64,000 nt of DNA, taken from assembly GCF_050920415.1 (NCBI RefSeq), contig NZ_CP169309.1, one strand, 5' to 3'. Below, piece after piece: positions 5,123 through 44,557 of the stretch; positions within the stretch are counted from its first letter, which is position 1; each line of letters begins with the position of its first letter. The position numbers were made by a program, and so were the translations under genes. The notes beneath the pieces are model-generated. The model was not told where the DNA came from. It worked only from the letters and a program-made list of their open reading frames with translations, and searched no databases. This DNA comes from Escherichia coli (GTDB lineage: Bacteria > Pseudomonadota > Gammaproteobacteria > Enterobacterales > Enterobacteriaceae).

Positions 5123-5137
5123 TTAGTATAAAAAAGC
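5123..5137. other. attR core (lambda att common core, prophage/ybhB junction)
   Basis: TTAGTATAAAAAAGC (reverse complement of GCTTTTTTATACTAA); flank reads as attB arm cttgagcgaaac on host side. Confidence 0.88.
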
Positions 5138-5282
5138 TGAACGCGAAACATTAAAAACCATTAATATCAATGCGTTACAATATCTTTAGTCTAAAAAATA
5201 GACTACATGATGCTACAAAACACAACATATCCAGTCACTATGAATCAACTACTTAGATAGTATTAGTGACCTGAGACAGAGC

Positions 5283-5322
5283 ATTAGCGCAAGGTGATTT
5301 TTGTCTTCTTGCGCTAATTTTT
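5283..5322 (+). terminator. rho-independent terminator-like hairpin just inside the prophage end
   Basis: 10-bp perfect stem ttagcgcaag/cttgcgctaa with 14-nt loop followed by T6. Confidence 0.45.
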
Positions 5323-5394
5323 TGTCAACGCACTGGGTTAGTTGAATTTACAACCATGCTCAGTTTGGTGATCTCTTTAGGTCGATTGTTATGG

Positions 5395-6435
5395 TTATGC
5401 TCTGCTTGATTCAGTGATTTTGGAATCCTGCATTTTAGTAATCATACCCATAATTTTATGCCTAAGCTTTTCCATTGGGTTTTCGATTAGATAAAAACTT
5501 ACCGCCCCAACTAAGATTGATGCTACCATCGTTGCTATATACATATAGAAACTGATTCCTACGTACCACACACCCATTGCTAGAATCAGGAAGTGCCATA
5601 GGTATATAGAGAAGCTCCATTTACCAATGTAAGACATTAACGGTGTTGACAGAGCCCAAGCAAATACACCTTCTCCATAGCTCATTAGCAGAACAATGAG
5701 TCCAAATATTGGCGCATAGAAAATAAATTTGTTGAGAACCCATCCATCAGTAAACCCACCAGTTAACTTCCACATAACTTTAGGCAGTGCAATAAGCATT
5801 GATACAATAAAGAACAGGAAGGCTATATCAGACAACTCTTGACCAATTTTAAGGAAATTATCGTGATAGAGAAATGCTGCAATCATTCCGCAAGCAAACA
5901 GTGGGAAATACCACATCACCATTCCGCCATACGCACTATCCATCGCAGGGTACAATCCCTGTAGCAATACAGCCAGTGCGAAAATAAGGAATGCCGCTGC
6001 TTTTCCATTGTACACTTTTTGAATTGCGACACCAGCATACGCAAAGAATGGAAGTATGAAGTAGAATTTATACTCAATTGGTATTGTCCAGAAATGAAGC
6101 ACGGCCTCTTTCATCGTTATGATTGAGATTGCCGTATTCAAATCAAAATACCCAAAATATGAATACACGAGAACAGCTATTGCGAACACCGGAAGGATTC
6201 TCATTGTTCTTCCAAGGAAATAACTTAAAAGAGACCGCCAGGAAAATCCGGTAGAAATAAATCTACTGGTTAGCAAAAATGCGCTGAGAACAAAGAATAT
6301 CCAAACACCAAACTGTGAACTTCCACCAAGCATAACCTCATACTCATGAAAATATATTCCTGTAGCGTGGGCTATTATTACAAGGAATACCGCTATTGCC
6401 CTTAGTCCATCAAGAGACTTGATTTTACCTTTCAT
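5395..6435 (-). CDS. acyltransferase-3 family integral membrane protein, probable O-antigen acetyltransferase (lysogenic-conversion type)
   Basis: ORF 5395..6522; multi-TM product with LDGLRAIAVFLVIIAHA motif near N-terminus; AT-rich; last gene before att, as oac in Sf6. Confidence 0.7.
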   Translation of the reverse strand: MKGKIKSLDGLRAIAVFLVIIAHATGIYFHEYEVMLGGSSQFGVWIFFVLSAFLLTSRFISTGFSWRSLLSYFLGRTMRILPVFAIAVLVYSYFGYFDLNTAISIITMKEAVLHFWTIPIEYKFYFILPFFAYAGVAIQKVYNGKAAAFLIFALAVLLQGLYPAMDSAYGGMVMWYFPLFACGMIAAFLYHDNFLKIGQELSDIAFLFFIVSMLIALPKVMWKLTGGFTDGWVLNKFIFYAPIFGLIVLLMSYGEGVFAWALSTPLMSYIGKWSFSIYLWHFLILAMGVWYVGISFYMYIATMVASILVGAVSFYLIENPMEKLRHKIMGMITKMQDSKITESSRA

Positions 6436-6518
6436 TTCTTTCCCAGATATGGAGTGAACATCTGCGAAAATGTAGCACATTTCAAGGTAAACAAGAAGCG
6501 CATCCATGCGCATTTTCA

Positions 6519-8438
6519 TCACCCTGCCTTGGTGTATGTCCAGTTAAATGTTGTTGTTCCCTGGCTTGTGATGGTTACAATCCTTCCTGTCACTGTAAAT
6601 GATATCAACCCTCCTGACTTAAGCGGAGTTAAAGTAAGTGTTGTTCCGTCCCACATGGCAAGCTGAAGCGAAGAGAAATTTGTTCCACTGCTTTCTGCCC
6701 AAACGCTTATCAGGTACATCCCTTGGCTATTTGGCAGTTCAAACAACGTAGTTGCTACGTTAGCTGCAACAGCCTGAGTTCCTTTCGCTGTGTACACTGC
6801 TGGCAACTGATTACCTGCAGAGCTTCGTGATTCAACATATGAGCCTGAAGTTTGCGTCCCAGTTAATGAGCAGTCAGTAAATACTCCATTCCCTGTGCTG
6901 TAAGTTGATATTACAGGAGTCCCACCAGTCGGAGCCTTAAACCGGCATCCCTCAGCAATTATTTTTGCTGTTGAGTCTGTCAGCAATGTGTTTGGGTATC
7001 CAGAGCCAGTGTAGGTTATTGATTCGCTATCAAGGAAGCTATCGGTACTTGATTTTATGTTAACAATGCTTGTGCCTGTTGCAAAGATAAATGCTGCTGT
7101 CCCACTCCCCGTTGTTTGCATTGAGTTTCCATGCCCGGCCAATCCTGATATATGGGCAATAGTATCATTAAGTTTTATATACGACGCAGTAATTCCATTT
7201 GTATTTTTTATTATATTAGACTCACCATCATACCCTGTAATAGTAAGACACTTACATCCAGAAAAATATAACCCTGAGGAATCAAATGTATATTGCGACC
7301 CGTCAACTGTGATCTGGTCTCCTGCACAGTTTATTAGCTGAGGAGACAGGCAATTTACAACATACCATGCCTGTGCTGCATCCAGCACATAACATGTATC
7401 CCACTGTATTGTCGTTCCGTTCGCCTTATAGAAACCATGTGCAACTCTCCTCGCCCATACCTGGGTATACTTTGTTAGGTAATTTCCAGAGTCATCATAT
7501 ATGGCCCACCATGCACCATCAACCTCAACATTTTTAATGTGCATAACGCCTGGTGAAGTAGTTCCTCCATCAATTAGAATGCCAATTTTACCATCATTGC
7601 CAGTAGGTGATGTAGGGCGTCCTCCATCGTAAAAAATATAGACATTTTCAATATTTATTGTATTAAACGCTGCGTGGTAATGGAAACAAGCTATATTTCC
7701 TATTACTGCTATGAAAGTTTCCGGCCTATTTATGTTGCTGTTTGTTTCGCCATTTATTGTGCAGTTTGAATTCATCTCTATCGTTGCATTTACGAAGTAA
7801 GTTCCAGATGTCAATAATACATTCCGCCCTGTATTAATTGCGGCCTGTATGCCTGCATAGTCAAGAGACTGAGTTAGTGATGTTACGAATGGATAAACAG
7901 CCTGCGCCGCTGATAGTGTGGAGAATTTCTCGCTGAGTGGATGCAGAGTTCCGTCAGCTGTTGCACCGAAATCCTTGGCTGAAATGAAGTTGGTATTTTT
8001 ATCATGTTGAGTTAAAGCTATTGAGCCGATATATGGCTGCTTAACTGCAACTAGTGCATCTCCCATTCCATCAGCATCGCTTTCTAACTGCTGCTTAAAC
8101 TGATCAGGGTCATACTTCAGCACATTAGGAAAATAGAACTGCCGTGCACCATACGCATTATATACAGCCATAGAATGGCCTTGCACAGTTACGAACTTGG
8201 CAATCTGTCCGTTATATACAGGGTAACCAGCGGCGTTAATGATGATTGGTTGCGAAACAGGAACGTGAGAGCCGTCTTCGTTCTCTACATAAACCTGAAT
8301 CTGGTTTTCTGGATTTACTGGGTACGTGTCAATTTTACCGATATAAATTTTGCCATTGGCAACCGCTTTAAAAGAACGCGCCATAGTGAAGAGTTGCGAA
8401 GGCATGCTTACCACAACATTTGCGGTGATATCTGACAT
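6519..8438 (-). CDS. tailspike protein with P22-like N-terminal head-binding domain and divergent C-terminal receptor-binding domain
   Basis: ORF 6519..8486; from ATG 8438 reads [61 protein letters not shown]..., matching the P22 gp9 N-terminus; SD GGAG upstream. Confidence 0.85.
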
Positions 8439-8559: not shown

Positions 8560-8820
8560 ATGTACAGCAAATACGACGAGGCGCAGTTTCACTTGAGACT
8601 TCCGCATGAACTCCACGCGAAAATTAAGCAGCGTGCGAAGATGAATAACAGGTCGCTGAACTCAGAGATAATTGCAGCGATTGAAGAATCATTGGATAAA
8701 CAAAGCTCTGCATCAGTTTACATTGACGATGCAGAGCGTATGGCAGAACAACAATCTGATATGGTTAAGAAAATGGTTTTTGAGACGCTCAAAGAGCTAT
8801 ATAAAAAAGACAGCAGCTAA
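8560..8820 (+). CDS. mnt: Mnt-like ribbon-helix-helix repressor
   Basis: ORF 8527..8820; MYSKYDEAQFHLRLPHELHAKIKQRAKMNNRSLNSEIIAAIEESL...DAERMAEQQSDMVKKMVFETLKELYKK resembles P22 Mnt; divergent from late genes. Confidence 0.7.
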   Translation: MYSKYDEAQFHLRLPHELHAKIKQRAKMNNRSLNSEIIAAIEESLDKQSSASVYIDDAERMAEQQSDMVKKMVFETLKELYKKDSS

Positions 8821-8840: not shown

Positions 8841-8918
8841 ATGCAAAGAGATATGCTGAATATTGCGTTCTACATATTTGGTTTTTGCACGTTCCTGGTG
8901 TTTGCGAAGCTATTCTGA
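8841..8918 (+). CDS. 25-aa hydrophobic peptide (MQRDMLNIAFYIFGFCTFLVFAKLF), hypothetical
   Basis: ATG preceded by strong SD GGAGGA at 8832-8837; single predicted TM helix; below the ORF-track size cutoff. Confidence 0.35.
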   Translation: MQRDMLNIAFYIFGFCTFLVFAKLF

Positions 8919-10907
8919 CAACGCATCAGACTTGGCACCTTGAGTCAGGGCGTTAATGGCCTTTTGCGCCTGCTGCATGGCTTTCTCAAACGCTGTTGAT
9001 CCGCGTGGGGTGTTTGCCATTCGGAGCATTGCATTTCTGAATGGCTCGCTCTCATAGGCGCGAGTAAGAAGTCCGTAGCTTACCGCTGCGCCAGTTGTCG
9101 CCGGGTTCATTGCCGTCCCATATCCGATAATGAACGGGATGGTTTGCTGCCCTGTTGGTGTTGTTACTGCTGCTTTTGCAGCCTGCTGCGTGGATTGCAG
9201 GTAGTTTTTTAATCCTTTCAGATAAGCAGCGTCCTGCCCCTTAAATGTGATGCCAGTCTGGTTTTGCAGGATATTAAGCTGCCGAAGGAACTGGTCAGGG
9301 GATCCACCTGATTTCTCCATCGCCTTTCCAATGATGCCATTGCGCATTTGCGCCCTGCCAACACGACCAACTGAGTTATACAGCGTCTTAATTTCCGATT
9401 TGTTCTTGCTGAATAGCATGTTGTTGACAACTTCCGGCGTCAGGTCGCCTTTCATGAGAACATTCTTCAGCCTGGTATTCTTTAGTTTCGCCGCTTCGTC
9501 AGCGTAGACGGCATTGGCCTGCTGATATTTACGGAGAGTATCGTTGCCAAGATTCTGACCAATGGCACCATTGATATCGTCTGTCATTGCCTTGTAAACG
9601 CGCTGAATGGCAGCATCGGAACGGTTTGGTAACACTGATCGTTCCCCCTTCACGTCAATTCTGAACTGGCTGCGCAGATCGCTTAATTGCTTCAAATCCA
9701 GATTTACCGGACCATCAGGACCAGCATTGCGAACAAGCTCATCACGATAGGACTGAAGTTTTGAAATAGTCTCGTTATCGGCGACCTTACCAAGCTTCTG
9801 CAGGTTAGATATTTCTGTATCAATCTGCTGAATTGCTCGAGCAGGCTGGATATTGACTCCCGCCATTGCATTCTGAACCTGCTCAAGACGGTTCCCTGCA
9901 GCACGACGAATTCCTGATGTTTTCGCTTTAAGGCTGTCAATAACAACAGCTGGATCATACTCACCGAATTTATCAGCAAATCTCTGCACCAACTGGCTTC
10001 TCGCTTCCTGTTGCGTTGCTCTCATTCCGCTTGTGCCAGCCAGGGGGATATTTTCCGCTGTCGTCTGCGCCATTTTCCCGACGCGGGAAGTAGGCTGTAA
10101 CAGGTCTGTGGTGTGCAGAGGAACTCCTTCACGCTCTGCAAATCTGATAGCCTGCTGCGCTTCTGGCGCAATAGCACCACGAACGCCACGATAAGCAGCA
10201 CCTAATCCACGTCCGGCAGCGTTAATAGCACCGCCAGCCAGCACACCAACGCCTAAATCGGTGGCGAGTGCTTCCGCATCATCTTTCGCACTATTTGCAG
10301 CAAGTGATCCAACTGCGTTTTCTGCTAGAAGGCGAGTTGCTCCCTGAGCAATTCGACCTGCAAGTGTTGGTGCCTGTACCGCCGCTCTCTCAACGCCAGC
10401 AGGAGTGAGGTAAGGCAATGCTTCAGCAAATACCCTTCCCTCTGTCGTTTGTGGAGTCAGCGCACCTTGCTGAAGGCCAAAGTCCTGCTCTAATCCCTGC
10501 GTTGTTACTCGTGGCGCTGGTTGATATGTACCATAGCCAATACCGAGTTTACCGCCAGCCCAAGCCGCAGCGCTTGTTACAGCATCGGCAACTGATGCAG
10601 GTATGTTTGCCACGTTCACGCCAGCCTGCACCAGTCCGCGACCAGTTTCTTTCACGGCTTCACCAAGATCAGACATAAATCCAGTTTGCTGTGGTTGTTG
10701 CTGTGCTTCTGGTTGTTGTGTCTCCACTGGCTGCACAGATGGCAATGGATAGGCAGCATAGAAAGCTTGCTTAGCCTGCTCTGCATTTTCTCCGGCTTGC
10801 GGGGCCACGACTTCATTGAAGTATTGCTCCTGAGCCTGCGATTTTTGTTCTGGTGCTAACGCCTGATACTGTGGAGAGGCGATAACATCTTTCCATGCTT
10901 TAGCCAT
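8910..10907 (-). CDS. ejection (injection) protein, P22 gp16-like
   Basis: 665-aa ORF; position after gp20-like gene; Ala/Gly/Gln-rich composition typical of P22-like ejection proteins. Confidence 0.7.
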   Translation of the reverse strand: MAKAWKDVIASPQYQALAPEQKSQAQEQYFNEVVAPQAGENAEQAKQAFYAAYPLPSVQPVETQQPEAQQQPQQTGFMSDLGEAVKETGRGLVQAGVNVANIPASVADAVTSAAAWAGGKLGIGYGTYQPAPRVTTQGLEQDFGLQQGALTPQTTEGRVFAEALPYLTPAGVERAAVQAPTLAGRIAQGATRLLAENAVGSLAANSAKDDAEALATDLGVGVLAGGAINAAGRGLGAAYRGVRGAIAPEAQQAIRFAEREGVPLHTTDLLQPTSRVGKMAQTTAENIPLAGTSGMRATQQEARSQLVQRFADKFGEYDPAVVIDSLKAKTSGIRRAAGNRLEQVQNAMAGVNIQPARAIQQIDTEISNLQKLGKVADNETISKLQSYRDELVRNAGPDGPVNLDLKQLSDLRSQFRIDVKGERSVLPNRSDAAIQRVYKAMTDDINGAIGQNLGNDTLRKYQQANAVYADEAAKLKNTRLKNVLMKGDLTPEVVNNMLFSKNKSEIKTLYNSVGRVGRAQMRNGIIGKAMEKSGGSPDQFLRQLNILQNQTGITFKGQDAAYLKGLKNYLQSTQQAAKAAVTTPTGQQTIPFIIGYGTAMNPATTGAAVSYGLLTRAYESEPFRNAMLRMANTPRGSTAFEKAMQQAQKAINALTQGAKSDALSE

Positions 10908-12295
10908 TAATCACCCCATAGTGAAGAAAAGTTACTGCTGGCTGCTGGCTGTGATACCTGTGCAGGTTGAGATTGCTGCCGCTGAGATTTACCAACATTA
11001 ACGTTATATTGTTGGTTGTAATTGTTGGTGTATTCCTGAATCTCACGAATCGACTGCTGCATAGCCTCCGGGCTTGAATAGTCAACCTGCGGCATCCCCT
11101 GAAAATACATCTTCGCTTCTGCAACGGTGTTAATACCACTGGCACCCATGTCCCTTGCTGCCGCCACACCCTGATTCTGCATTCTGCCCTGAATCCGTTG
11201 TGCTGAGTTATATAACTGGCGCTGCTCTTTTCCTGTTAATCTGCTGCGAACATCAGCACCAATTGCTGGATTACCTGCACCGCCTGTCATTCCTGTCATG
11301 AAATCGAGAGCAGAAGCGTCTGCATTTGCGATCGCGTCGATATCCTTCTTCATGGCATAGTTTTGTGCTGATGCAGACGATGTTGCAGGCGCAGCGATTG
11401 AACTGGCAGGGACACGAACCATATTCCCCTCGTTGTCGATGCCTTCGTAGAACGCATTAGCCCCAGCGCCATGAAGCTTCCCGCCTACCGTTACAGTTCT
11501 GCCATCTGATAACTGAACTGTACGCTCATCATTCCCAGCGATTCCTCTTGTTGACGCTCGCTGCATTGCCAAATCCTGACCTCGTCGCGCAGTAGAAGAA
11601 GATAAGTCCTGACCGCGCATCGTGATGTTCTGGCCTCGTGCTGTTAGCGCCTCGCCAGCCTGATTGCTGCGGATTGTCTCTGCAAGTTTTCCGCGATCAA
11701 TCTCACGACCAGCCATCTTGTCCTGAACATTGAAGTAATCAATTGGACCAAGAGCAGCCATCCCAAGGTGATCAACAAACTCACCAAATCCTGAAGGATT
11801 CTGCTGATACATCTGAGCAACGTTGTTAGGGTCAACACCTACGCGAGTCAGTTCCTTGGCGTTGTTTTGCAGCCATGATTGCATCGCTTCTGGAGACGAT
11901 GCCGCAAGGCGAGCGCCAGCCGCTAAGGTGCCGATAGAATTACGCTGGTCTTCATCAATGAATCCCATGCCTTTACGAACGGATTCAATCTGGTCTGGAT
12001 ATTGAGTAGCCAACTGACGCAAAGCACCGCGATCACCAGACGCATAAGCATTAGCGTATGCCTGCTGAAATTCTTTCTGCCGCTGAGCCTGCTTTTCCTG
12101 CTGAAACACCCCCGCAATACCTGAAAGGCCTTGCAAAGCAGTCAGCCCAACATTGTTAGCGCCTGAACGCTCAATATCATTGTTCTGCCTGATAAGCTGA
12201 AGCGTATTGCCGATGTCATTTACGCTCGGAGCGTTTGAGTTGACGCCGCCGATACCAGCCAACAATCCGCCGTTTGTTCCTTGCCAAGTAGCCAT
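10907..12295 (-). CDS. ejection (injection) protein, P22 gp20-like
   Basis: 462-aa [20 protein letters not shown]...; synteny 14-7-20-16. Confidence 0.7.
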
Positions 12296-12304: not shown

Positions 12305-12838
12305 TTAAAACAACGAGCCAAGCAATCCGATACCAGCACCAATGCCAGCGCCCCAAGGCGTTGATGTTCCCAAAAGGCTGGCAAGACCTGCACCGGCAAT
12401 CGCACCAGACGTGCCACCGCTAATTGCAGTCTGAAGACTTGATGGTTTATTGGCATTAGCAGCGGCAAGTGCTGCGCTTTGCTGTGCAATGCTGCTCATG
12501 TTGTTGGCGTACGTCTGCCCGGCGTTTGCCTGACCTTGCAGCGCACCAAGCCCAACGTTTGCCAGATTGTTGTAATTGCTCATCTGGTTTGATAACCAAG
12601 ACTGACCGAGTGTAGGCGCGATTGTAGCCAGTTGATTGCTTGTGGCTGTCGAACCAAGTCCTCCCGTAGCCTCCGCAGCAGCAAGACTCTGGTAACGAGC
12701 CTGACCTGCAAGGTCTTTATACTGCTGAGAGTTGTAATACTGATTAAGTGCCTGCCCCTGACCTTCTAAACTGGAAAGGTTCTGAAGCTGGTTAACATAC
12801 TGCTCCGCAAGAGGCGTGAACGGAGCAAGGTTTTTCAT
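12305..12838 (-). CDS. ejection protein, P22 gp7-like (C-terminal 177 aa; see finding on split gene)
   Basis: ORF 12305..12865; ATG at 12836-12838 overlaps stop of upstream 53-aa ORF in ATGA arrangement. Confidence 0.55.
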   Translation of the reverse strand: MKNLAPFTPLAEQYVNQLQNLSSLEGQGQALNQYYNSQQYKDLAGQARYQSLAAAEATGGLGSTATSNQLATIAPTLGQSWLSNQMSNYNNLANVGLGALQGQANAGQTYANNMSSIAQQSAALAAANANKPSSLQTAISGGTSGAIAGAGLASLLGTSTPWGAGIGAGIGLLGSLF

Positions 12839-12996
12839 GATCGTCTGCCACTGCTGATTTTGCAATCTGCAGCATACTTCTGAGCTTCTGCTGCATACTT
12901 TGCGCTTTTATCAGAGCTGCCACCTTTCCCGCCTTTTTCAGGGCAATAAGGTTCCTCGCCGCGCAGTTTTCTGCCCAGCTTAAATGCATATAACAT
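12835..12996 (-). CDS. 53-aa ORF (MLYAFKLGRKLRGEEPYCPEKGGKGGSSDKSAKYAAEAQKYAAD...), possibly the N-terminal part of the gp7 homolog
   Basis: ATG at 12994-12996 with SD GGGAGA; not in ORF track (under 60 aa). Confidence 0.4.
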   Translation of the reverse strand: MLYAFKLGRKLRGEEPYCPEKGGKGGSSDKSAKYAAEAQKYAADCKISSGRRS

Positions 12997-12998: not shown

Positions 12999-13457
12999 CT
13001 ATCTCCCGTGATTCAGGAAGTCGATTAGTTCTTCGCGTGTGGCGCTGTAAAAAGTCACGTCATCCACGCCTTTGAAGTATTTCTTGATGGTTCCTACACG
13101 CTTAAGGCCAATCATTGCGCAGTACATCTGACCGTGGCGGAATTTGCGTGCGGCGAACGATGTGACACACTGGACGGTGGTGTTAGTCAGAATGTATCGC
13201 CAGAACGCCAGCCCAATTTCCTTGCTGAAGCCGCGAATCTCTGGCAGGTACATGGCGTGGCAATCGAATGTCAGCGGCTGAATCTCCTGATAGTAAACAA
13301 TGCCGCCGAACTGCCCGTGCACGTTCACCTCAAAGTAACGGCAATCAGGTTTGTAGTCGTATCCATCACCGTTGTTGCTCCCGGCAATAATGTCAGGGTG
13401 ATTTCCGACTGCTTCGATCAAGTCGATGTTTCGCGTTGGTTTGAACTGAATCATCAC
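12999..13457 (-). CDS. head assembly protein, P22 gp14-like
   Basis: 152-aa ORF; synteny between tail needle and gp7. Confidence 0.6.

Positions 13458-16197: not shown

Positions 16198-16220
<23 letters not shown>
15720..16220 (-). CDS. head completion protein, P22 gp4-like
   Basis: ORF 15720..16316; from ATG 16220 reads [47 protein letters not shown]... resembling gp4 (166 aa). Confidence 0.8.
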
Positions 16221-33769: not shown

Positions 33770-33878
33770 GAACCAAAGAGTAGTTGGCTTTGGGGTGACG
33801 TGAAGTGCAGCTGCACGACGGCAACCGGAAGATAAGCACCCGGCGCGTCACCGCCAAAGTCAATCATCGGAGGTCAAC

Positions 33879-34794: not shown

Positions 34795-34932
34795 GATGGA
34801 GGATATATGAGTGAAGTAACAGATTTAGTTGTTATTGAAAAAGCAAATGCAATGACTGTATTTCAGTCTGCCGACCAGATTGAAGAAATCTGAACCGCCC
34901 CGGGTTTCCTGGAGAGTGTTTTATCTGTGAAC

Positions 34933-35820: not shown

Positions 35821-36146
35821 TATTTTTTCCAGAGGCGGTCGAACTCCGCCTTCGCAAAATAAGCGGAAGCCTGGCGAAGGATATCGTTACTGCGGCGCAG
35901 TTCACGATTTTCACGTTCCAGCTCTTTCAGACGCTGACGTTCAGCGGTGGTGAGCCCACCATCACCGCTCCCGGTATCCCTCTCATGCTGGCGAACCCAG
36001 ACACGCAGAGTCTCTGGCGTACAGCCAATCTTTGGAGCAATGGAACAAATTGCCGCCCATTGTGAGTCATATTCGCCCTGACTTTCCAGAACCATACGAA
36101 CTGCGCGTTGACGGACTTCGGGGGAAAAACGAGTATTTTTAGTCAT
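35820..36146 (-). CDS. IS3-family transposase OrfA (HTH)
   Basis: 108-aa [60 protein letters not shown]... Confidence 0.85.
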
Positions 36147-37112
36147 CCTGTTTACCTCTTTCTCAGGAAGTTTAGTCTCCAGGATTTCCGGGGCGGTTCA
36201 ATCCTTCAAAAGGTTGAACGTGAAGTTATGTCCTTTGTGCCTGATATCACAACGGCAAAGGGCAGAAAGGAGATCGCTTCTCTGGCGTATAAAGTTGCGC
36301 AGACGAAAACATATCTCGATGGTCTTGGCAAAGACCTTGTTGCTGAACTGAAGGAAATTCCAAAGCTAATTGATGCCAACCGCAAGACAGTGCGCGATCG
36401 CCTTGATGAGCTGAAAGCCAAGGCACGCCAGCCTCTTACTGATTATGAGGAAGAACAGGCGCGGATTAAAGCCGAAGAAGAAGCTAAGGCAGCAGCTGAA
36501 GCTCTCGCAAAGCAAATTGAGTCTGACCATGAAATAGCGATTTTGATGGATCGCGAATTTGACCGCCAAAGAGAAGAGGCAAGACTCAAAGCTGAGCAGG
36601 AAAAGCGAGAGCATGAAGAACGCTTAAAAAGAGAAGCTGAAGAGAAAGCAAGAGCAGAAGCCGAAGCAAAGGCAAAAGCCGAAATTGAAGCAGCCGCAAG
36701 GCGAGAAGCAGAAGCTAAGGCCGCAGCGGAACGTGCAGAGCGTGAACGCATTGAGGCCGAGCAACGAGCACAGCGCGAAGCAAAAGAGGCAGCAGAACGA
36801 GCTGAAAGAGAAAAGCAGGCAGCAATTGAAGCAGAACGCAGAAAAGCACAGGAGGAGGCTGAACGAATCCGTCGCGAGGCTGAAGCAAAAGAGCAAGCCA
36901 GAATCGCAGAAGAAAAAAGAATCAAGGACGAAGAAGAGCACAGAGCAAAGGATAAAGCTCACCGGAAAGAAGTAAATAACAAAATACTTGCTGACCTTAT
37001 CAAGGTTGGCGCATCAGAAGATGTTGCTAAAAATATCATAACAGCCATCGTAAAAGGCGAAGTATTCGCAACAAAAATAACCTACTAATAAAACCAACAT
37101 AAGGAACCACCC

Positions 37113-37244
37113 ATGATTTACGCAATCGCGGGAGGCGCTCGCATGGGTGCCTTCCAACTAAATGAATCTTTACTTGAACGAATCACCCGTAAATTACGTG
37201 ACGGATGGAAAAGAGTTGAGGTCCTATTATGCGCAATGAAATAG
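37113..37244 (+). CDS. cIII: CIII-like protein (FtsH/HflB inhibitor)
   Basis: Hand-translated 43-aa ORF MIYAIAGGARMGAFQLNESLLERITRKLRDGWKR... matches lambda CIII core SLLERITRKLRDGWKR; below ORF-track cutoff. Confidence 0.7.
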   Translation: MIYAIAGGARMGAFQLNESLLERITRKLRDGWKRVEVLLCAMK

Positions 37245-37381
37245 CCATCAATCACCATATGCTTCGTGCTGCACAGAACAAAGCAGTAATAGCCAGATTT
37301 ATTGGTGATTCCAAAATGTGGCTTGAAGCAAATAAAGCGATGAAATCAGCTATCAACATTCCGTGGTATCGCAGGAAATGA
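37229..37381 (+). CDS. Kil-like host cell-division inhibitor
   Basis: Hand-translated 50-aa ORF MRNEIAINHHMLRAAQNKAVIARFIGDSKMWLEANKAMKSAINIPWYRRK; Kil-family FIGD motif; immediately after cIII-like gene. Confidence 0.5.
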   Translation: MRNEIAINHHMLRAAQNKAVIARFIGDSKMWLEANKAMKSAINIPWYRRK

Positions 37382-37536
37382 GTTTTACAGATAACTGGTC
37401 AGACGAAGAATTCATTCGTCAGATGAAAGAATTAATCGGTAACGAAGGAGATATTCATGTCACTTGCAACCACCGTGAAGGAGAGCAAGTTACAGAGACG
37501 CATGTACACGCAGAAAGCTCTCTGGTATCGCCATAA
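37378..37536 (+). CDS. hypothetical 52-aa protein
   Basis: ATG overlaps Kil-like stop (ATGA); MSFTDNWSDEEFIRQMKELIGNEGDIHVTCNHREGEQVTETHVHAESSLVSP. Confidence 0.35.
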   Translation: MSFTDNWSDEEFIRQMKELIGNEGDIHVTCNHREGEQVTETHVHAESSLVSP

Positions 37537-37635
37537 TGGCGACCGCGAAGGAATGCGGGTATGCCTTAATTTGTCTCGAGTCGAAGTATTAAATCAGCGT
37601 TATTTCCTTGGGCCGTGTCCATTCTGAGGTGAATT

Positions 37636-38343
37636 ATGGATTTGAATAAATTCGATGAGCCATTCAGCCCTGAAGATATCGAATGGCGAATACAGCAAAG
37701 CGGTAAAACACGCGATGGCAAAGTGTGGGCTATGGTGCTGGCTTATGTCACGAACCGGGCAATCATGAAACGCCTGGACGATGTTTGCGGCAAAGCAGGA
37801 TGGCGCAATGAATACCGCGATATTCCCAACAACGGCGGCGTTGAATGCGGCATATCAATAAAGATTGATTCCGAATGGGTAACCAAATGGGATGCTGCTG
37901 AAAACACGCAGGTAGAAGCCGTCAAAGGTGGTCGTTCCGGTGCAATGAAGCGCGCTGCCGTTCAGTGGGGAATCGGTCGGTATCTGTATAACCTTGAGGA
38001 AGGTTTCGCACAAACATCTCCCGATAAAAAGCAGGGGTGGCACAGGGCAAAACTGAAGGATGGAACAGGATTTTACTGGCTCCCTCCATCGCTGCCGGGA
38101 TGGGCAATCCCAGCATCAGATAACAAACCATCACCAGAAAATACCAACCAGAAATCTCCATCGGTTGACTGCGAACAAATCCTGAAAGACTTCAGCGATT
38201 ATGCATCAACAGAAACTGACAAGAAAAAACTCATCGAGCGTTATCAGCGTGACTGGCAATTAATGGCTGGCAACGAGGAGGCGCAGGCTAAATGCGTTCA
38301 GGTAATGAACATCAGAGTTAACGAACTAAAACAGGCGGCATAA
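37636..38343 (+). CDS. erf: Erf-like single-strand annealing recombinase
   Basis: 235-aa ORF; C-terminus ...ETDKKKLIERYQRDWQLMAGNEEAQAKCVQVMNIRVNELKQAA resembles P22 Erf C-terminus. Confidence 0.75.
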   Translation: MDLNKFDEPFSPEDIEWRIQQSGKTRDGKVWAMVLAYVTNRAIMKRLDDVCGKAGWRNEYRDIPNNGGVECGISIKIDSEWVTKWDAAENTQVEAVKGGRSGAMKRAAVQWGIGRYLYNLEEGFAQTSPDKKQGWHRAKLKDGTGFYWLPPSLPGWAIPASDNKPSPENTNQKSPSVDCEQILKDFSDYASTETDKKKLIERYQRDWQLMAGNEEAQAKCVQVMNIRVNELKQAA

Positions 38344-38817
38344 ATGGCAAGCAGAGGCGTAAATAAGGTGATCATTATTGGTCGCCTTGGGCATGATCCA
38401 GAAATCAGATATTCACCATCAGGAACGGCATTTGCAAACCTTACAGTTGCTACGTCAGAACAATGGCGTGATAAGCAAACTGGAGAGCAAAAGGAGCAGA
38501 CGGAGTGGCACCGTGTGGTAATGAGCGGGAAACTGGCAGAAATTGCCAGCGAATATCTGCGAAAAGGCTCTGAGGTTTATCTTGAAGGCAAATTGCGGAC
38601 AAGAAAATGGCAGGATCAAAGCGGACAGGATCGGTTCACTACCGAAGTTATCGTAGGCGTTGGTGGAACCATGCAAATGCTTGGTGGCAAGCAAGGAGGC
38701 AATGAACAGTCTTCACCTCAGCGAAATAACGGTCAGCAACAAAGACAGCAATCTCAGCAGCAAGGGAATCACAGCGAACCACCTATGAACTTCGACGATT
38801 CGGATATTCCGTTCTAG
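38344..38817 (+). CDS. ssb: single-stranded DNA-binding protein
   Basis: 157-aa ORF; OB-fold N-terminus, Gln/Gly-rich linker, acidic tail DDSDIPF. Confidence 0.9.
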
Positions 38818-38826
38818 GAGCTGAAT

Positions 38827-39306
38827 ATGAAAATCTGCTCAAGATGCCATCAACAGAAGGAAGAAAGGGACTTTCAAATCAGAAGAGCATCCAGAGATGG
38901 ATTAACTGCCGCTTGCCGGGCTTGCCTGGCTGAATATGACAAAGAGCGCGCGGGATTGCCACATCGAGTATCAGCAAGGAGAGAATATCAATCATCGGAA
39001 CGCGGCAGAGAACGGTGTAACGCAGCCAAAAAGCGGTTCATTCAGAGCAACCCATGGAAAAGAAAAGCCCACATCATCGTGGGTAATTTTTTGCGCGACG
39101 GTAAGCTAATCCGACCACCACAATGTGAGTGCTGCGGATCAGAATGTAAACCACAGGCGCACCACTGCGACTACAGCAAACCAACCGATGTGATGTGGCT
39201 CTGCAAGTCATGTCATGTCGAGTGGCACAAACATAACAAACCTATCTACCCAGACGAGGAGCCAGTAACTCTCCCCTTCCCTCGTCACGCTATTCACGCA
39301 ATTTAA
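38827..39306 (+). CDS. Cys-rich protein with C-terminal HNH endonuclease-like motif
   Basis: 159-aa ORF; CxxC pairs and HHCDYSKPTDVMWLCKSCHVEWH. Confidence 0.55.
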   Translation: MKICSRCHQQKEERDFQIRRASRDGLTAACRACLAEYDKERAGLPHRVSARREYQSSERGRERCNAAKKRFIQSNPWKRKAHIIVGNFLRDGKLIRPPQCECCGSECKPQAHHCDYSKPTDVMWLCKSCHVEWHKHNKPIYPDEEPVTLPFPRHAIHAI

Positions 39307-39319
39307 TCAGGAGAAAATC

Positions 39320-39613
39320 ATGCCAGCGCCTCAGTATGGTGCGGATGACCCGCGCCGCTGTTCCGGCAATTCCGTATCGGAGGTGCTGGATAAATTCAGG
39401 AAAAACTACGACCGGATAATGTCGCTACCGCAGGAAACGAAAGAGGAAAAGGAATTTCGTCACTGTATATGGCTTGCAGAGAAAGAAGAACGCGAGCGAA
39501 TTTACCAGACATCAATCCGACCATTCCGCAAAGCCACATATACCCACTTCCCTGAAATTGACCCGCGCCTGCGTAATTATCGATCACGCTATGGCGCTAT
39601 CAGTAATGACTGA
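39320..39613 (+). CDS. hypothetical 97-aa protein
   Basis: ORF-track entry in early-left operon. Confidence 0.4.
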
Positions 39614-39623: not shown

Positions 39624-39791
39624 ATGAGAGGACTTACATACAATCCCGGCATTCTTCCGGCAGAAATGATTATTCGCCAACGCGTAAAGCCAATGCCATC
39701 GAGAGAGGAATTGCTTAAAAGAAAGAGTTTCGGTTCTGTTAATGACAACAAATATCTGAATGCGATGTGGCGTAAAGGAGGCAAGCAGTGA
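39624..39791 (+). CDS. hypothetical 55-aa protein
   Basis: ATG 39624 with SD GAGGAA; C-terminal part of ORF 39474..39791. Confidence 0.3.
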
Positions 39792-40087
39792 GTGTATGTC
39801 TTATTGATAAACGTCGACGTGGGCAACAAATACCATCTGTTGAAATGCCGAATCACACATGGTTTTGCGTACTTGATATCGATGGTATGGATACGTTGGT
39901 TGACACTCGTCATTACTGCGATACCGCAACAGCTACTCCGGCGAAAGCAAAGAAAATGGCTGCTATGATAGAAAGCTGGACTCCACCTGATGGTTGGTGC
40001 AATGGGAATGATCGAGATTGGCACGAAAAAATGAAGGGCTATATCTGCGATTTTTTACGTAAATGCAACGGATTCAGGGTGATGTGA
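39788..40087 (+). CDS. hypothetical 99-aa protein
   Basis: ORF-track entry; ATGA-type coupling to neighbours. Confidence 0.4.
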
Positions 40088-40088
40088 C

Positions 40089-40982
40089 ATGAGCGAGATT
40101 AACCATCAGGCACTGCGTGAGGCGGCGGAAAATGCAACTAAGGGGAGCTACATCGTAGGGCATACATCGGTCAATCAGCACGGTAATTTAACAGGAGTTT
40201 TTGTTTGTCAAAAATGGAAAGGAGAACCCGGAGGCGTGATTGCAGAATGTCATGTTAACTGCCTGGTTGAAACAGATGTTCAGGCTTATGCAAACGCTGA
40301 ATTTATTGCTGCCTTTAATCCAAATGTTGCGCTGGCGCTACTGGATGAACGGGAAAGAAACCAGCAATACATCAAACGCCGCGACCAGGAGAACGAGGAA
40401 ATTGCGCTAACGGTAGGGAAGCTGCGTGTTGAGCTGGAAGGCAAAGACAAGCTGATTGCAGAGCTTAGAAAACAATGCGCTGAATGGGAGCGAAAAGCAT
40501 TAAGCAACTTTGAAGAGTGTGCTGCGATGGCTGAACGTATCGAAGAGTTGCAGACAAAATCTGCACCAGATTCGTTTGGCATCATCGGTGAAAATATTCG
40601 AACACAGGATAATCGAATAACGTCAGACCCTATGTTTTGTGTGTATCAAAAGCGCGAAATCGTTGTTGATGCTGATTATGACTATGACCGGATTGTCTGG
40701 GTTGATGAAGATGGCAATGAAGCCAATAAACGCCAAAGTCGTCGTCTCGAACTACTTCACGAAAACTTTCGAGAGCCACCAGAAAAATGGCGGCGCGTTG
40801 CTGTGAAAGATATTGATGAATTCGTTACCTGCTGTTTCACCGAACAGGGTTGTAAAGACTACCTGGCAGTCAATGGTCACAATCTTCGCTTGCCATTTAT
40901 ATATGTAAAAAGCGGTTTCAGGAACGCTGAATATATCGGCATAAGAAACTGGCTTGCTGGCATTCGCATCAAAGGAGAGTGA
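40089..40982 (+). CDS. Ead/Ea22-like early protein
   Basis: 297-aa ORF MSEINHQALREAAENA...ALALLDERERNQQYIKRRDQENEEIALTVGKLRVELE resembles lambda Ea22. Confidence 0.7.
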   Translation: MSEINHQALREAAENATKGSYIVGHTSVNQHGNLTGVFVCQKWKGEPGGVIAECHVNCLVETDVQAYANAEFIAAFNPNVALALLDERERNQQYIKRRDQENEEIALTVGKLRVELEGKDKLIAELRKQCAEWERKALSNFEECAAMAERIEELQTKSAPDSFGIIGENIRTQDNRITSDPMFCVYQKREIVVDADYDYDRIVWVDEDGNEANKRQSRRLELLHENFREPPEKWRRVAVKDIDEFVTCCFTEQGCKDYLAVNGHNLRLPFIYVKSGFRNAEYIGIRNWLAGIRIKGE

Positions 40983-40983
40983 G

Positions 40984-41175
40984 ATGAATGGACAAATATC
41001 AATTGTTCGACCAGGAGCATGTGACGATCGCGAAATACGAATGATTATTCGTCTGGCGATGGGGAAAACAATAACAGCTCTCATTACTCCAGAAAATCTC
41101 GCATTAGCTTTAACCGGAAAGTCAGACCTGCCAGTGGAGCTAAAGCTGCGAAATGTTGAGATTAAGGTGAAATAG
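40984..41175 (+). CDS. hypothetical 63-aa protein
   Basis: SD AGGAGA then ATG 40984; part of ORF 40954..41175. Confidence 0.35.
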   Translation: MNGQISIVRPGACDDREIRMIIRLAMGKTITALITPENLALALTGKSDLPVELKLRNVEIKVK

Positions 41176-41177
41176 CT

Positions 41178-42383
41178 ATGACCACTATTACCAAAGAACG
41201 TATCGAATTGTTCATTAAAAATCCGCTTGATAACGGACTTACTCGTGGCGAACAAATGGAACTGGCACGAATTGCACTGGCCTCGCTTGAGGCAGAGCCA
41301 GTTGGTGCATTCCACATTGCTGAACAGCAAGTTGACGGAACAAGTGACTATCTCAAGGATGGAGAATGGCCTATTGATAATGGGATTATTGAAGTCTACG
41401 CCGCTCCGCCAGTACCGGTAGTACCTGCTGCATTACCTGAGAACGACGATGAGGACGGGCATGACATTGATTATCTTGAGCCATCTGAAGTTTACGCGCT
41501 TGGGCGAACAGCTGGCTGGAACGCCTGCCGCGTCGCCATGCTTCAGTCCGGAAACTTTCTGGAAAACAAGAATTCGTCAACCAATAATTTTCGGGAAATC
41601 GCGGAAACGTCAACCAACTCTCCGGTAATTCCTGATGAGGTGTTGTCCGCAATCCGGGAGGTTGCCAGGATTCGCGCCGATTTCGATGATTTTGACGGTG
41701 ACAGGCGAGGTATCGGTGATTGTCTGGATGAGGCCGAGCAAGAGCTTATCGTTACCATTAACAAATATGCCAGTCAGTTGGCAGTAGAGCCGGTAGTGCC
41801 TGCTGTTCTGGAACGTTTGCGAACCATTGTAGCGGACCCACGCGCATTACCTCGCAGAAAAGAATGGGTTAGTGGGCAGCAGTACAGTTACGTACTTCTC
41901 GAAAACGTAGAAGCTATGGTTGATGAAGCCTGCCGTGCAGCCATGCTCTATGGTGCCGTACATGCAAGCCAGGCTTACAAGTTGCCACAAACGCAGTTTA
42001 AACAGGTTGCTGACCTCTACGAAATGCAATTTGATGACGGTCGCACTTGTACCTTTCACACTGATGCGCAAAAGGCTGTGCAATGGCTTCAGGCGTGCGA
42101 CGGAAACAGGGTTCAGGAATACGTTAAGCTGGAACGATTGCAGAACGCACTGTCTGGCAACTCTCCGGTAACTCCGGATGGTTGGATAAGCTGTAGTGAG
42201 CGAGTGCCAGAGGACGGTCAGCACGTAATTATTTTATGTGATGGCGCATTCGTTCTTTATGCGCAATATCGGGGCGGTGAGTTTTTTGATGTCGTCCGCA
42301 ATGGTGAGGAGTTCTTCGAAACGCAGAGCCGCAATGTAACCCACTGGATGCCGCTACCAGAACCGCCGCAGGAGGCGAAATGA
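41178..42383 (+). CDS. Ead/Ea22-family protein with DUF551-like C-terminal domain
   Basis: 401-aa ORF; C-terminal WISCSERVPEDGQHVIILCDG...HWMPLPEPP. Confidence 0.55.
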   Translation: MTTITKERIELFIKNPLDNGLTRGEQMELARIALASLEAEPVGAFHIAEQQVDGTSDYLKDGEWPIDNGIIEVYAAPPVPVVPAALPENDDEDGHDIDYLEPSEVYALGRTAGWNACRVAMLQSGNFLENKNSSTNNFREIAETSTNSPVIPDEVLSAIREVARIRADFDDFDGDRRGIGDCLDEAEQELIVTINKYASQLAVEPVVPAVLERLRTIVADPRALPRRKEWVSGQQYSYVLLENVEAMVDEACRAAMLYGAVHASQAYKLPQTQFKQVADLYEMQFDDGRTCTFHTDAQKAVQWLQACDGNRVQEYVKLERLQNALSGNSPVTPDGWISCSERVPEDGQHVIILCDGAFVLYAQYRGGEFFDVVRNGEEFFETQSRNVTHWMPLPEPPQEAK

Positions 42384-42640
42384 TGAATGTAAAAGAGAAG
42401 GTTTTTCAGGTGATGCGTTCCCGGGCTGCCCTGCAAGATAAAGCTCTCGGCGGGGAATATCCATTCAGGATGGCAACCTGGAATCTGCGGTTGGCAATGG
42501 AGAAGGAATTTCCTGATGAAGAATGGCGTTCGGCAGATTTGCGCAAAATTCTTATGGAGATGGCTAAAGACGGAACAGTATCCAAAGATACCCATGCCAG
42601 CCGGATTGGTCAGGCGGTATGGAGACTGGAGGTGAGGTAA
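42380..42640 (+). CDS. hypothetical 86-aa protein
   Basis: ORF-track entry. Confidence 0.4.
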   Translation: MMNVKEKVFQVMRSRAALQDKALGGEYPFRMATWNLRLAMEKEFPDEEWRSADLRKILMEMAKDGTVSKDTHASRIGQAVWRLEVR

Positions 42641-42924
42641 TGGCTAACCTGCAACTTGCCGTTAAATGTGAATACTTCGATGCCATGATTCGTGGAGAGA
42701 AAACGGAAGAGTATCGCTTGTGTAATGACTACTGGAATAAGCGAATTATGTTCCGCGAGTACGACCGCCTGATTATCACAAAGGGATATCCGAAGCGCGA
42801 CGACTCCAGTCGTAGAATTGACGTCCCGTATGACGGATATGAAATCAAGACAATCATACATCCACACTTCGGTGATAAACCGGTAAAGGTGTTCGCGATA
42901 AAGGTGAATATCGGCAATGAATAA
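42640..42924 (+). CDS. hypothetical 94-aa protein (possibly ASCH-like)
   Basis: ORF 42619..42924, start placed at MANLQLAVKCEYFDAMIRGEKTEEYR with SD GGAGGTGAGG. Confidence 0.4.
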   Translation: MANLQLAVKCEYFDAMIRGEKTEEYRLCNDYWNKRIMFREYDRLIITKGYPKRDDSSRRIDVPYDGYEIKTIIHPHFGDKPVKVFAIKVNIGNE

Positions 42925-42995
42925 CATCCTCGCACTCGCGGGGATTTCTTTTATCTGAACTCGCTACGGCGGGTTTTGTTTTATGGAGATGATAA

Positions 42996-43163
42996 ATGCA
43001 CTTCCGAGTCACAGGTGAATGGAATGGAGAGCCATTCAACAGAGTTATCGAAGCAGAGAACATCAACGACTGCTATGACCACTGGATGCTGTGGGCGCAG
43101 ATAGCACATGCAGACGTAACCAATATTCGAATTGAAGAACTGAAAGAACACCAAGCCGCCTGA
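42996..43163 (+). CDS. hypothetical 55-aa protein upstream of xis
   Basis: Hand-translated MHFRVTGEWNGEPFNRVIEAENINDCYDHWMLWAQIAHADVTNIRIEELKEHQAA. Confidence 0.4.
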   Translation: MHFRVTGEWNGEPFNRVIEAENINDCYDHWMLWAQIAHADVTNIRIEELKEHQAA

Positions 43164-43176
43164 TGGCGGTTTTTTC
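43155..43176 (+). terminator. rho-independent terminator-like hairpin upstream of xis
   Basis: GCCGCC-tgat-GGCGGT followed by TTTTTTC. Confidence 0.5.
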
Positions 43177-43202
43177 TTGCGTGTAATTGCGGAGACTTTG
43201 CG

Positions 43203-43421
43203 ATGTACTTGACACTTCAGGAGTGGAACGCTCGCCAGCGACGCCCAAGAAGCCTTGAAACAGTTCGTCGATGGGTGCGCGAATGCAGGATATTCCCTCC
43301 TCCGGTTAAGGATGGAAGAGAATATCTGTTCCACGAATCAGCGGTAAAGGTTGACTTAAATCGACCAGTAACAGGTAGCCTTTTGAAGAGGATCAGAAAT
43401 GGGAAGAAGGCGAAGTCATGA
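43203..43421 (+). CDS. xis: excisionase Xis (lambda-type)
   Basis: 72-aa ORF MYLTLQEWNARQRRPRSLETVRRWVRECRIFPPPVKDGREYLFHESAVKVDLNRPVTGSLLKRIRNGKKAKS matches lambda Xis. Confidence 0.95.
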   Translation: MYLTLQEWNARQRRPRSLETVRRWVRECRIFPPPVKDGREYLFHESAVKVDLNRPVTGSLLKRIRNGKKAKS

Positions 43422-44469
43422 GCGCCGGGATTTACCCCCTAACCTTTATATAAGAAACAATGGATATTACTGCTACAGGGACCCAAGGACGGGTAAAGAG
43501 TTTGGATTAGGCAGAGACAGGCGAATCGCAATCACTGAAGCCATACAGGCCAACATTGAGTTATTTTCAGGACACAAACACAAGCCTCTGACAGCGAGAA
43601 TCAACAGTGATAATTCCGTTACGTTACATTCATGGCTTGATCGCTACGAAAAAATCCTGGCCAGCAGAGGAATCAAGCAGAAGACACTCATAAATTACAT
43701 GAGCAAAATTAAAGCAATAAGGAGGGGGCTGCCTGATGCTCCACTTGAAGACATCACCACAAAAGAAATTGCGGCAATGCTCAATGGATACATAGACGAG
43801 GGCAAGGCGGCGTCAGCCAAGTTAATCAGATCAACACTGAGCGATGCATTCCGAGAGGCAATAGCTGAAGGCCATATAACAACAAACCCTGTCGCTGCCA
43901 CTCGCGCAGCAAAATCAGAGGTAAGGAGATCAAGACTTACGGCTGACGAATACCTGAAAATTTATCAAGCAGCAGAATCATCACCATGTTGGCTCAGACT
44001 TGCAATGGAACTGGCTGTTGTTACCGGGCAACGAGTTGGTGATTTATGCGAAATGAAGTGGTCTGATATCGTAGATGGATATCTTTATGTCGAGCAAAGC
44101 AAAACAGGCGTAAAAATTGCCATCCCAACAACATTGCATGTTGATGCTCTCGGGATATCAATGAAGGAAACACTTGATAAATGCAAAGAGATTCTTGGCG
44201 GAGAAACCATAATTGCATCTACTCGTCGTGAACCGCTTTCATCCGGCACAGTATCAAGGTATTTTATGCGCGCACGAAAAGCATCAGGTCTTTCCTTCGA
44301 AGGGGATCCGCCTACCTTTCACGAGTTGCGCAGTTTGTCTGCAAGACTCTATGAGAAGCAGATAAGCGATAAGTTTGCTCAACATCTTCTCGGGCATAAG
44401 TCGGACACCATGGCATCACAGTATCGTGATGACAGAGGCAGGGAGTGGGACAAAATTGAAATCAAATAA
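43399..44469 (+). CDS. int: integrase Int (lambda-type tyrosine recombinase)
   Basis: 356-aa ORF MGRRRSHERRDLPPNLYIRNNGYYCYRDPRTGKEFGLGRDRRIAITEAIQANIELFSG... matches lambda Int. Confidence 0.96.
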   Translation: MGRRRSHERRDLPPNLYIRNNGYYCYRDPRTGKEFGLGRDRRIAITEAIQANIELFSGHKHKPLTARINSDNSVTLHSWLDRYEKILASRGIKQKTLINYMSKIKAIRRGLPDAPLEDITTKEIAAMLNGYIDEGKAASAKLIRSTLSDAFREAIAEGHITTNPVAATRAAKSEVRRSRLTADEYLKIYQAAESSPCWLRLAMELAVVTGQRVGDLCEMKWSDIVDGYLYVEQSKTGVKIAIPTTLHVDALGISMKETLDKCKEILGGETIIASTRREPLSSGTVSRYFMRARKASGLSFEGDPPTFHELRSLSARLYEKQISDKFAQHLLGHKSDTMASQYRDDRGREWDKIEIK

Positions 44470-44542
44470 TGATTTTATTTTGACTGATAGTGACCTGTTC
44501 GTTGCAACAAATTGATAAGCAATGCTTTTTTATAATGCCAAC

Positions 44543-44557
44543 TTAGTATAAAAAAGC
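44543..44557. other. attL core (lambda att common core, int-proximal junction) with lambda P-prime arm at 44470-44542
   Basis: TTAGTATAAAAAAGC identical to the 5123-5137 copy; adjacent sequence reads as lambda attP P-prime arm. Confidence 0.88.

Follow-up and report, generated by a model that had tools for sequence, protein, structure and literature searches.

The stretch analyzed here, referred to as the window, comprises 64,000 nucleotides of the Escherichia coli contig NZ_CP169309.1 (assembly GCF_050920415.1), and its positions 5123 to 44557 hold a prophage at attB-lambda, the chromosomal attachment (att) site of phage lambda. We conclude with high confidence that this interval is a mosaic P22-like prophage (genus Lederbergvirus) that uses the lambda xis-int-attP cassette at attB-lambda. 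A sequence-only reading, made without database searches, had described a mosaic lambdoid prophage at this site in which lambda-type integration, Q and holin modules are combined with a P22-type virion module, and our comparisons bore this description out. The workings of each module were inferred from homology to characterized genes.

The ends of the element were located with the 15-bp sequence TTAGTATAAAAAAGC, the reverse complement of the lambda att core GCTTTTTTATACTAA. Exactly two copies occurred in the window, at 5123-5137 and 44543-44557, and none in 100 shuffles. The host genes bioA to ybhB lie on the left flank, and ybhC, followed onward to the gal operon, lies on the right. An empty attB-lambda site was found in the complete genome of the sister strain E. 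coli MFDS1022581 (NZ_CP169399.1), an isogenic strain that lacks the prophage and keeps the site intact. The features of the two ends and of the integration cassette are as follows.

5123..5137, no strand assigned: att core on the bio side (attR in lambda naming), an exact 15-mer whose junction was checked against the empty site in MFDS1022581
5138..5327, minus strand: lambda-type P arm of attP, 86.8% identical to lambda 27534-27738
43203..44469, plus strand: lambda-type xis (43203-43421) and int (43399-44469); Xis 98.6% and Int 99.2% identical to lambda
44470..44557, minus strand: lambda P' arm (44470-44542), with P'-side sites 100% identical to lambda, and the att core on the gal side (attL, 44543-44557), an exact 15-mer

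When positions 5138-44557 were removed and the flanks joined, the resulting 24,580 bp matched MFDS1022581 at 100% with 0 mismatches and 0 gaps. Therefore, 39,420 bp have been inserted precisely between ybhB and ybhC, and a single core copy stands at either end. The two exact copies and the empty sister site thus confirm the earlier statement that identical 15-bp lambda att cores bracket 39.4 kb between these two genes. The orientation of the prophage is that of lambda itself, with int nearest gal and the late genes toward bio.

The reconstructed attP together with int-xis aligned to lambda 27534-29361 as a single contiguous block of 1,828 bp with 97.4% identity. Int was identical to lambda Int at 353/356 residues (99.2%), and all six catalytic residues (R212, K235, H308, R311, H333, and Y342) were kept. 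Among the annotated lambda Int arm sites, P1 matched at 17/20 positions and P2 at 19/20, with the cores of both conserved; the stretch from P2 to the core, which holds the Xis, Fis, and IHF sites in lambda, was diverged (57/79 identical, 72%). Everything expected of a lambda integration module was found, namely a core at both ends, insertion at attB-lambda, a catalytic Int, and arm sites with Xis. These features predict insertion of the prophage through recombination by Int at the 15-bp attB-lambda core, and acquisition of the lambda xis-int-attP segment as one contiguous 1.8-kb block would explain its insertion there. No second integrase or extra internal att site was seen among the open reading frames (ORFs) longer than 50 amino acids. 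As for other phages at this site, Salmonella phage SI8 was rejected as a named P22-like phage with a lambda att, since its int-xis showed only 72% nucleotide identity and it had no lambda core, and phage Gally (LF82) and HK022 were not counted as att-lambda users because their int matches ended before the core.

The virion genes TerS, TerL, portal, scaffold, coat, gp4, gp10, gp26, gp14, gp7, gp20, and gp16 were all present in the P22 order, as determined by tblastn against P22 and the E. coli phage IME10 and by Pfam matches in identical sister copies of the prophage. From TerS to gp16, the nucleotide identity of the block was 79% to P22 and 95-96% to IME10. The P22-type assignment made earlier for these genes, for the small terminase with its pac site, and for the tailspike therefore held.

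6519..8438, minus strand: tailspike, 639 amino acids (phrog_8649, E=0; PF09008)
8910..12295, minus strand: ejection proteins gp16 (8910-10907) and gp20 (10907-12295), from tblastn against P22 (PF26808, PF16928)
12305..12996, minus strand: ejection protein gp7, split between two reading frames by the private deletion of one base at 12864, within GATC; intact at 230 amino acids in sister copies
12999..16220, minus strand: gp14 (12999-13454), tail needle gp26 with knob (13454-14302), gp10 (14302-15720; 92% identical to P22), and gp4 (15720-16220)
16503..18709, minus strand: coat (16503-17798) and scaffolding protein (17798-18709), 73% and 85% identical to P22 gp5 and gp8
18723..20889, minus strand: portal protein, interrupted by one private inserted base at 19199; the extra base is absent in all 20 relatives checked
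20890..22387, minus strand: large terminase (TerL), broken into three reading frames by private 1-base deletions at 21470 and 21970; intact at 499 amino acids in sister copies and relatives
22365..22853, minus strand: small terminase (TerS), 100% identical to P22 gp3

The 22-mer that we take to be the P22 pac sequence was matched at 22/22 positions at 22565-22586 on the minus strand, within the TerS gene, and this exact match inside a gene whose product is 100% identical to gp3 supports the pac assignment. Residues 1-121 of the tailspike, the head-binding domain, were 70% identical to P22 gp9; this was the only part in common with gp9, the receptor-binding domain being different. The exact tailspike protein occurs on 11 public contigs. 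Comparison with lambda gave no match to its head and tail genes in the interval, in agreement with the earlier remark that lambda tail genes are absent. Thus, the virion gene order, the tailspike head-binding domain, and a pac site in the TerS gene that characterize Lederbergvirus were all found; intact frames for all essential virion genes were not found in the sequence as written (TerL interrupted twice, portal and gp7 once each). A short-tailed virion is predicted from the gene set. The sequence-only call of a short-tailed podovirus stands as far as that gene set goes, but not for the sequence as written, in which frameshifts interrupt TerL (twice), portal, gp7, and endolysin R.

Exact-protein look-ups placed the same prophage at the same site (ybhB-bioA side) in no fewer than six public drafts of E. 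coli genomes: GCA_048027635.1, GCA_000194575.2, GCA_015518365.1, GCA_002133425.1, GCA_020910405.1, and GCA_045005245.1. They were 99.96-100% identical to the window over each overlap and together covered approximately 1-24 kb and 26-43 kb of it. The tailspike, acyltransferase, immunity region, and int were the same as here, whereas the drafts lacked both the insertion sequence (IS) element IS629 at 34891 and all nine private differences of the window, including five frameshifts.

Among 50,697 phage records, no named phage covered 80% or more of either half of the interval, and the interval does not align end to end with any one described phage. The best phage matches were the E. coli Lederbergviruses IME10 (NC_019501.1) and CUS-3 (CP000711.1), which share the P22-type gene order and cover at most 73% and at most 48%, respectively, of any interval half. 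In IME10, the TerS-gp16 block was 95-96% and the erf-ssb segment 98% identical, whereas in CUS-3 the replication and nin genes were 97-98% identical. Neither carries a lambda-type integration cassette: the IME10 integrase is annotated as IntS-like (resembling the one in cryptic prophage CPS-53), and CUS-3 encodes an integrase of its own and has another att core, 16 bp in length. Their tailspikes and immunity regions are also unlike those here, with CUS-3 carrying an endosialidase. Lambda (NC_001416.1) shares the att core, an identical P' arm, Int (99.2%), Xis (98.6%), Q, S, cII, and NinB (98-99.5%), and the same chromosomal orientation; its head and tail genes, cos-type terminase, exo/bet/gam, and rex are lacking here, and its cI/cro and O/P differ. 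P22 (AF217253.1) shares an identical TerS with pac, the virion gene order, gp10 (92%), gp14 (91%), scaffold (85%), coat (73%), the gene 12 helicase (89.5%), and a Mnt homolog, but its own int/xis, gtrABC conversion genes, arc-ant-sieA immI genes, endorhamnosidase tailspike, c2 repressor, and gene 24 antiterminator are lacking here.

The same architecture was seen in E. coli 88-3493 (NZ_CP027457.1), in which a P22-like prophage lies between ybhB and ybhC with a 72-amino-acid excisionase, a 356-amino-acid integrase, and an acyltransferase and tailspike beside att. It was approximately 95-97% identical in shared blocks, but it differed in the immunity region and the tailspike body and carried RecT in place of the Rad52/Erf-like recombinase. 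For the P22-like phage phiHS3, experiments show integration upstream of ybhC, excision, and SOS-inducibility (bioRxiv 10.64898/2026.05.19.726188); we liken it to the present prophage by site and type from its description. Hence, the combination of a P22-type virion with lambda integration is already known in public genomes; no named phage has precisely the set of modules found here, although several drafts do. Nor is the combination unusual, as the same prophage occurs in at least six drafts and other P22-like phages use the site.

P22-like phages are a textbook case of lambdoid mosaicism, and the finding, a further instance of modules exchanged between such phages, has little significance outside annotation. 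The prophage boundaries are now defined to the base.

Relative to P22 and IME10, the window carries two frameshifts in TerL (three reading frames) and one each in portal and gp7 (two reading frames each); one base is also missing from endolysin R. Judging from these frames, the sequence as written could not package DNA, build the portal vertex, eject DNA, or lyse the cell. Neither the frameshifts nor IS629 had been mentioned in the sequence-only reading. A difference was called private when the window allele was unique among the 4-25 related sequences aligned at each site; one site, 24499, was dropped because the sister copy, not the window, was the outlier. Nine private differences, six single-base indels and three substitutions, were obtained.

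12623: substitution, in a GATC site
12864: deletion, in a GATC site, gp7
16892/3: substitution, in a GATC site
17558: substitution, in a GATC site
19199: insertion, not in GATC, portal
21470: deletion, not in GATC, TerL
21970: deletion, not in GATC, TerL
23467: deletion, adjoining a GATC site
24795: deletion, in a GATC site, endolysin R

GATC sites are destroyed by five of the nine differences and abutted by a sixth, and GATC makes up 0.8% of the region (enrichment P=9e-9, computed on ten differences before 24499 was removed). TerL (499 amino acids), portal (721 amino acids), gp7 (230 amino acids), and R (158 amino acids) are intact in the sister copies. The same four genes are intact in ten unrelated relatives turned up by an exact look-up of the TerS protein, which was found in 13,255 index blocks. 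Over positions 907-22293, GCA_048027635.1 differed from the window by seven events and no more, and GCA_015518365.1 was 100% identical to it over 26038-34890 and 36200-40335.

Consensus errors centered on Dam sites are a recognized residual error mode of nanopore assemblies. Because the profile is rich in indels and centered on GATC, and because the genes are intact in near-identical sister copies, we regard the five frameshifts as likely consensus (basecalling) errors of the assembly, not real mutations. Several points weigh against this. All nine differences fall within 12623-24795, where 5 of 25 GATC sites are affected, while the rest of the window has 147 such sites and none affected (Fisher P=4.5e-5), and a genome-wide error process alone does not explain such confinement; a local polishing failure, for example one due to a second P22-like prophage sharing the conserved block, is possible. 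In addition, three indels (19199, 21470, and 21970) lie outside GATC, the flanks are error-free against MFDS1022581, i.e., the assembly is otherwise accurate, and the call was made from the assembled sequence and its relatives. The competing explanation is that the frameshifts are real and, with IS629, reflect decay, so that the prophage would be truly defective: excisable, as int, xis, and att are intact, but incapable of packaging, portal assembly, ejection, and lysis. It accords with the frameshifts as they stand in the sequence given, all of them in essential late genes, with IS629 as an independent and clearly real inactivating event, with an assembly that is not generally poor, and with the absence of the prophage from isogenic MFDS1022581, which is consistent with excision by an intact Int/Xis. 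Neutral decay, however, should leave mostly substitutions that are spread out, not six indels among nine events in 12 kb with five in GATC; the sister isolates, in which no other base differs over approximately 38 kb of overlap, have all these genes intact; and five independent frameshifts with almost no other change are implausible. We therefore judge true defectiveness to be unlikely. Far more doubtful still is the idea that the nine changes are real and arose by a Dam-site-centered, region-limited process, amounting to rapid targeted domestication of a P22-like prophage, in which the packaging, portal, ejection, and lysis genes would have been selectively wrecked while int, xis, immunity, and the conversion gene were spared. 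If the frameshifts are assembly errors, as we favor, the cell probably carries a virion-competent phage, any polar effect of IS629 aside. Without a read check, the five broken late genes are not to be read as evidence of a defective prophage, and their concentration at GATC is a warning on the assembly.

The sharp switches of best match along the nucleotide mosaic could also arise from an assembly chimera, or from two adjacent elements such as a lambda-type int/att remnant and a separate P22-like prophage. We consider this scarcely credible, since a single core pair brackets the whole interval, whose removal restores the sister chromosome exactly, and since int-xis, the P' arm, the core, and the P arm rebuild one contiguous lambda attP segment. 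Moreover, the genes follow the order of one P22-type prophage, the junction and interior recur in independently assembled drafts, with sister contigs spanning the bio-side junction, and the prophage of 88-3493 has the same architecture at the same site. A single mosaic P22-like prophage with the lambda cassette thus accounts for the interval.

In such a prophage, lysogeny would be maintained by a LexA-like S24 cI repressor of the Stx1a-phage immunity type. Once the prophage is induced, N would work at nutL and nutR, followed by a lambda-type Q, to antiterminate early and late transcription, the O protein and a DnaB-type helicase would replicate the genome, and Xis and Int would excise the prophage at the cores. 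The terminase is expected to package DNA by headfuls, starting from the P22 pac site within gene 3, and coat, scaffold, portal, and gp4/10/26 to assemble a P22-type T=7 head with a short tail, from which gp7, gp20, and gp16 would deliver the DNA. The tailspike, with its own receptor-binding domain, would bind and cleave a surface polysaccharide, the acyltransferase beside att probably acetylates the O antigen of the lysogen, and S, R, and Rz would lyse the cell.

Two further genes lie at the bio-side end, on either side of the tailspike.

5395..6519, minus strand: O-antigen O-acyltransferase (Acyl_transf_3, 374 amino acids) beside att (phrog_3333 O-acetyltransferase, E=1e-37; PF01757 in sister copies)
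8560..8820, plus strand, opposite to the flanking late genes: Mnt/Arc-family repressor, 86 amino acids, 49% identical to P22 Mnt (PF11423/PF03869 in sister copies)

The acyltransferase is a candidate lysogenic-conversion gene that probably modifies, by acetylation, the O antigen of the lysogen, and together with the tailspike it may influence how this E. coli clone types for O antigen. Neither arc nor ant was present alongside the Mnt homolog.

The lysis, late-regulatory, nin, and replication genes lie between the virion block and the immunity region.

24024..25240, minus strand: lysis cassette with Rz (24024-24461), endolysin R (24458-24933), and holin S (24917-25240), 92.8% nucleotide identity to lambda
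25674..26297, minus strand: lambda-type late antiterminator Q, 99.5% identical to lambda Q
26294..28969, minus strand: nin region with ninH, rusA, YbcO, roi-like, ninF, ninX, ninE, and ninB, 96.6-97.7% identical to CUS-3 (Pfam names from sister copies)
29043..31363, minus strand: replication genes for the DnaB-type helicase P (29043-30419) and O (30416-31363), 98% identical to CUS-3

Holin S was 99.1% identical to lambda S and NinB 99.3% identical to the lambda protein. Int, Xis, Q, S, CII, and NinB were all correctly read as lambda-type beforehand, at 97.9-99.5% identity to the lambda proteins, whereas Rz, for which the same had been said, was merely 57% identical to lambda Rz. Endolysin R, broken by the private 1-base deletion at 24795 in GATC, is an intact protein of 158 amino acids in relatives. 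Helicase P was 89.5% identical to P22 gp12. In a related prophage that shares the immunity region, the DnaB-type helicase has 797 amino acids (L037, 4879-7272), compared with 458 amino acids here, and a faint LAGLIDADG match; it may be an intein-containing replicative helicase.

The cro-cI-N immunity region, listed here with cII, is neither of the lambda nor of the P22 type.

31661..31954, minus strand: lambda-type cII, 97.9% identical to lambda CII
32045..32056, minus strand: nutR boxA, CGCTCTTTAACA, exact match
32064..33107, both strands: immunity genes cro (32064-32288, minus) and cI (32400-33107, plus; LexA-like S24 repressor) (phrog_4, phrog_35)
33148..33444, plus strand: 98-amino-acid membrane-anchored protein directly downstream of cI (phrog_18389, a family of unknown function)
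33730..34184, plus strand: nutL boxA (33730-33741, one mismatch) and the N antiterminator gene (33879-34184), N being a hybrid of HK620 and phage 21 types

The region cro-cI-orf98-N was 97.5% identical to the Stx1a-converting phage LC744178.1 and unrelated at the nucleotide level to lambda, P22, IME10, and CUS-3; cI was only 23% identical to lambda cI and 31% to P22 c2. The boxA had been assigned to the P22 type, which agrees with the exact match at the nutR position and the single mismatch at nutL. Residues 1-64 of N, which hold the arginine-rich stretch, were of the HK620/HK140/mEp213 type (95-97% identical; HK620 95%), and residues 37-97 were 87% identical to N of the lambda imm21 hybrid, so N is a recombinant whose RNA-binding and C-terminal ends differ in origin. 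The likeness to phage 21 N noted previously therefore applies to residues 37-97 but not to residues 1-64.

In the 98-amino-acid protein, a transmembrane helix at the N terminus precedes a charged tail resembling a coiled coil, and a terminator-like hairpin lies behind the gene at 33449-33468. Neither Pfam nor PADLOC gave a match for this ORF, and its position is that of lysogen-expressed exclusion genes such as lambda rex.

The early-left region contains the IS629 insertion.

34807..37088, plus strand: early-left gene of 322 amino acids (homolog of IME10 Orf53; phrog_1376), split by the IS at 34891 and intact in sister copies
34891..36200, minus strand: IS629 isoform of 1,310 bp with 25-nt terminal inverted repeats, a 3-bp target duplication (ATC), and orfA/orfB
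37113..39613, plus strand: cIII, kil, Rad52/Erf-like annealing protein (37636-38343), SSB (38344-38817), an endonuclease-like gene, and Abc2 anti-RecBCD (39320-39613), 98% identical to IME10
39624..43163, plus strand: early-left accessory ('ea') genes DUF2737, DUF7739, Ea22-like (40089-40982), DUF551 (41178-42383), and small ORFs

The Erf-like protein had been called P22-type, which is true of its C-terminal 79 residues (63% identical to P22 Erf) but not of its N-terminal domain, which belongs to the Rad52/Rad22 family. Along its whole length, the IS629 element showed 97.1% identity to annotated IS629 copies, its transposase fell into PHROG transposase families, and an ALIL programmed-frameshift pseudoknot was found at 35749-35865 (RF01497, 122 bits). 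Length, terminal repeats beginning TG, duplication, orfA/orfB with a -1 frameshift signal, and identity all place it in IS629 (IS3 family). It is not at 34891 in the sister copies of the prophage and is a real transposition into the early-left gene. Lying in the pL operon, it may reduce expression downstream, from erf through int. The opposite-strand ORF pair at 34933-36146 was considered as a defence moron and rejected, since PHROG families, IS629 identity, and the ALIL element identify it as the transposase orfA/orfB. PADLOC gave no defence-system match for ten accessory ORFs, including this pair; Rfam and tRNA scans of the prophage gave nothing besides the IS frameshift element; and a literature search on the IS terminal repeat string returned no result.

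The host flanks (window 1-5122 and 44558-64000) are only approximately 97-98% identical to most complete E. coli genomes, as against 100% to MFDS1022581, which points to a less commonly sequenced E. coli lineage as the host. The lysogen was not found among the 5,426 complete RefSeq genomes searched.

The sister drafts showed some variation of their own. In GCA_000194575.2, a different IS3-family element of 1.3 kb lies in the Ea22-like gene at approximately window 40335 (L033, 15880-17209), and none lies at 34891; thus, isolates with this prophage carry IS insertions at differing places in it. A contig of GCA_015518365.1 (L042) ends exactly at that point of the Ea22-like gene, at approximately window 40335. 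In two sister drafts (L008, L011, and L032), contigs both break at window 12667, inside gp7, which suggests a repeat or IS insertion there in those isolates. Finally, gp10 of GCA_000194575.2 was called as two pieces of 334 and 136 amino acids owing to a one-base difference in a T run (L031, 2748-2753; window 14733), and this split, together with differences at window 23874 and 30769, probably represents homopolymer errors of an older assembly.

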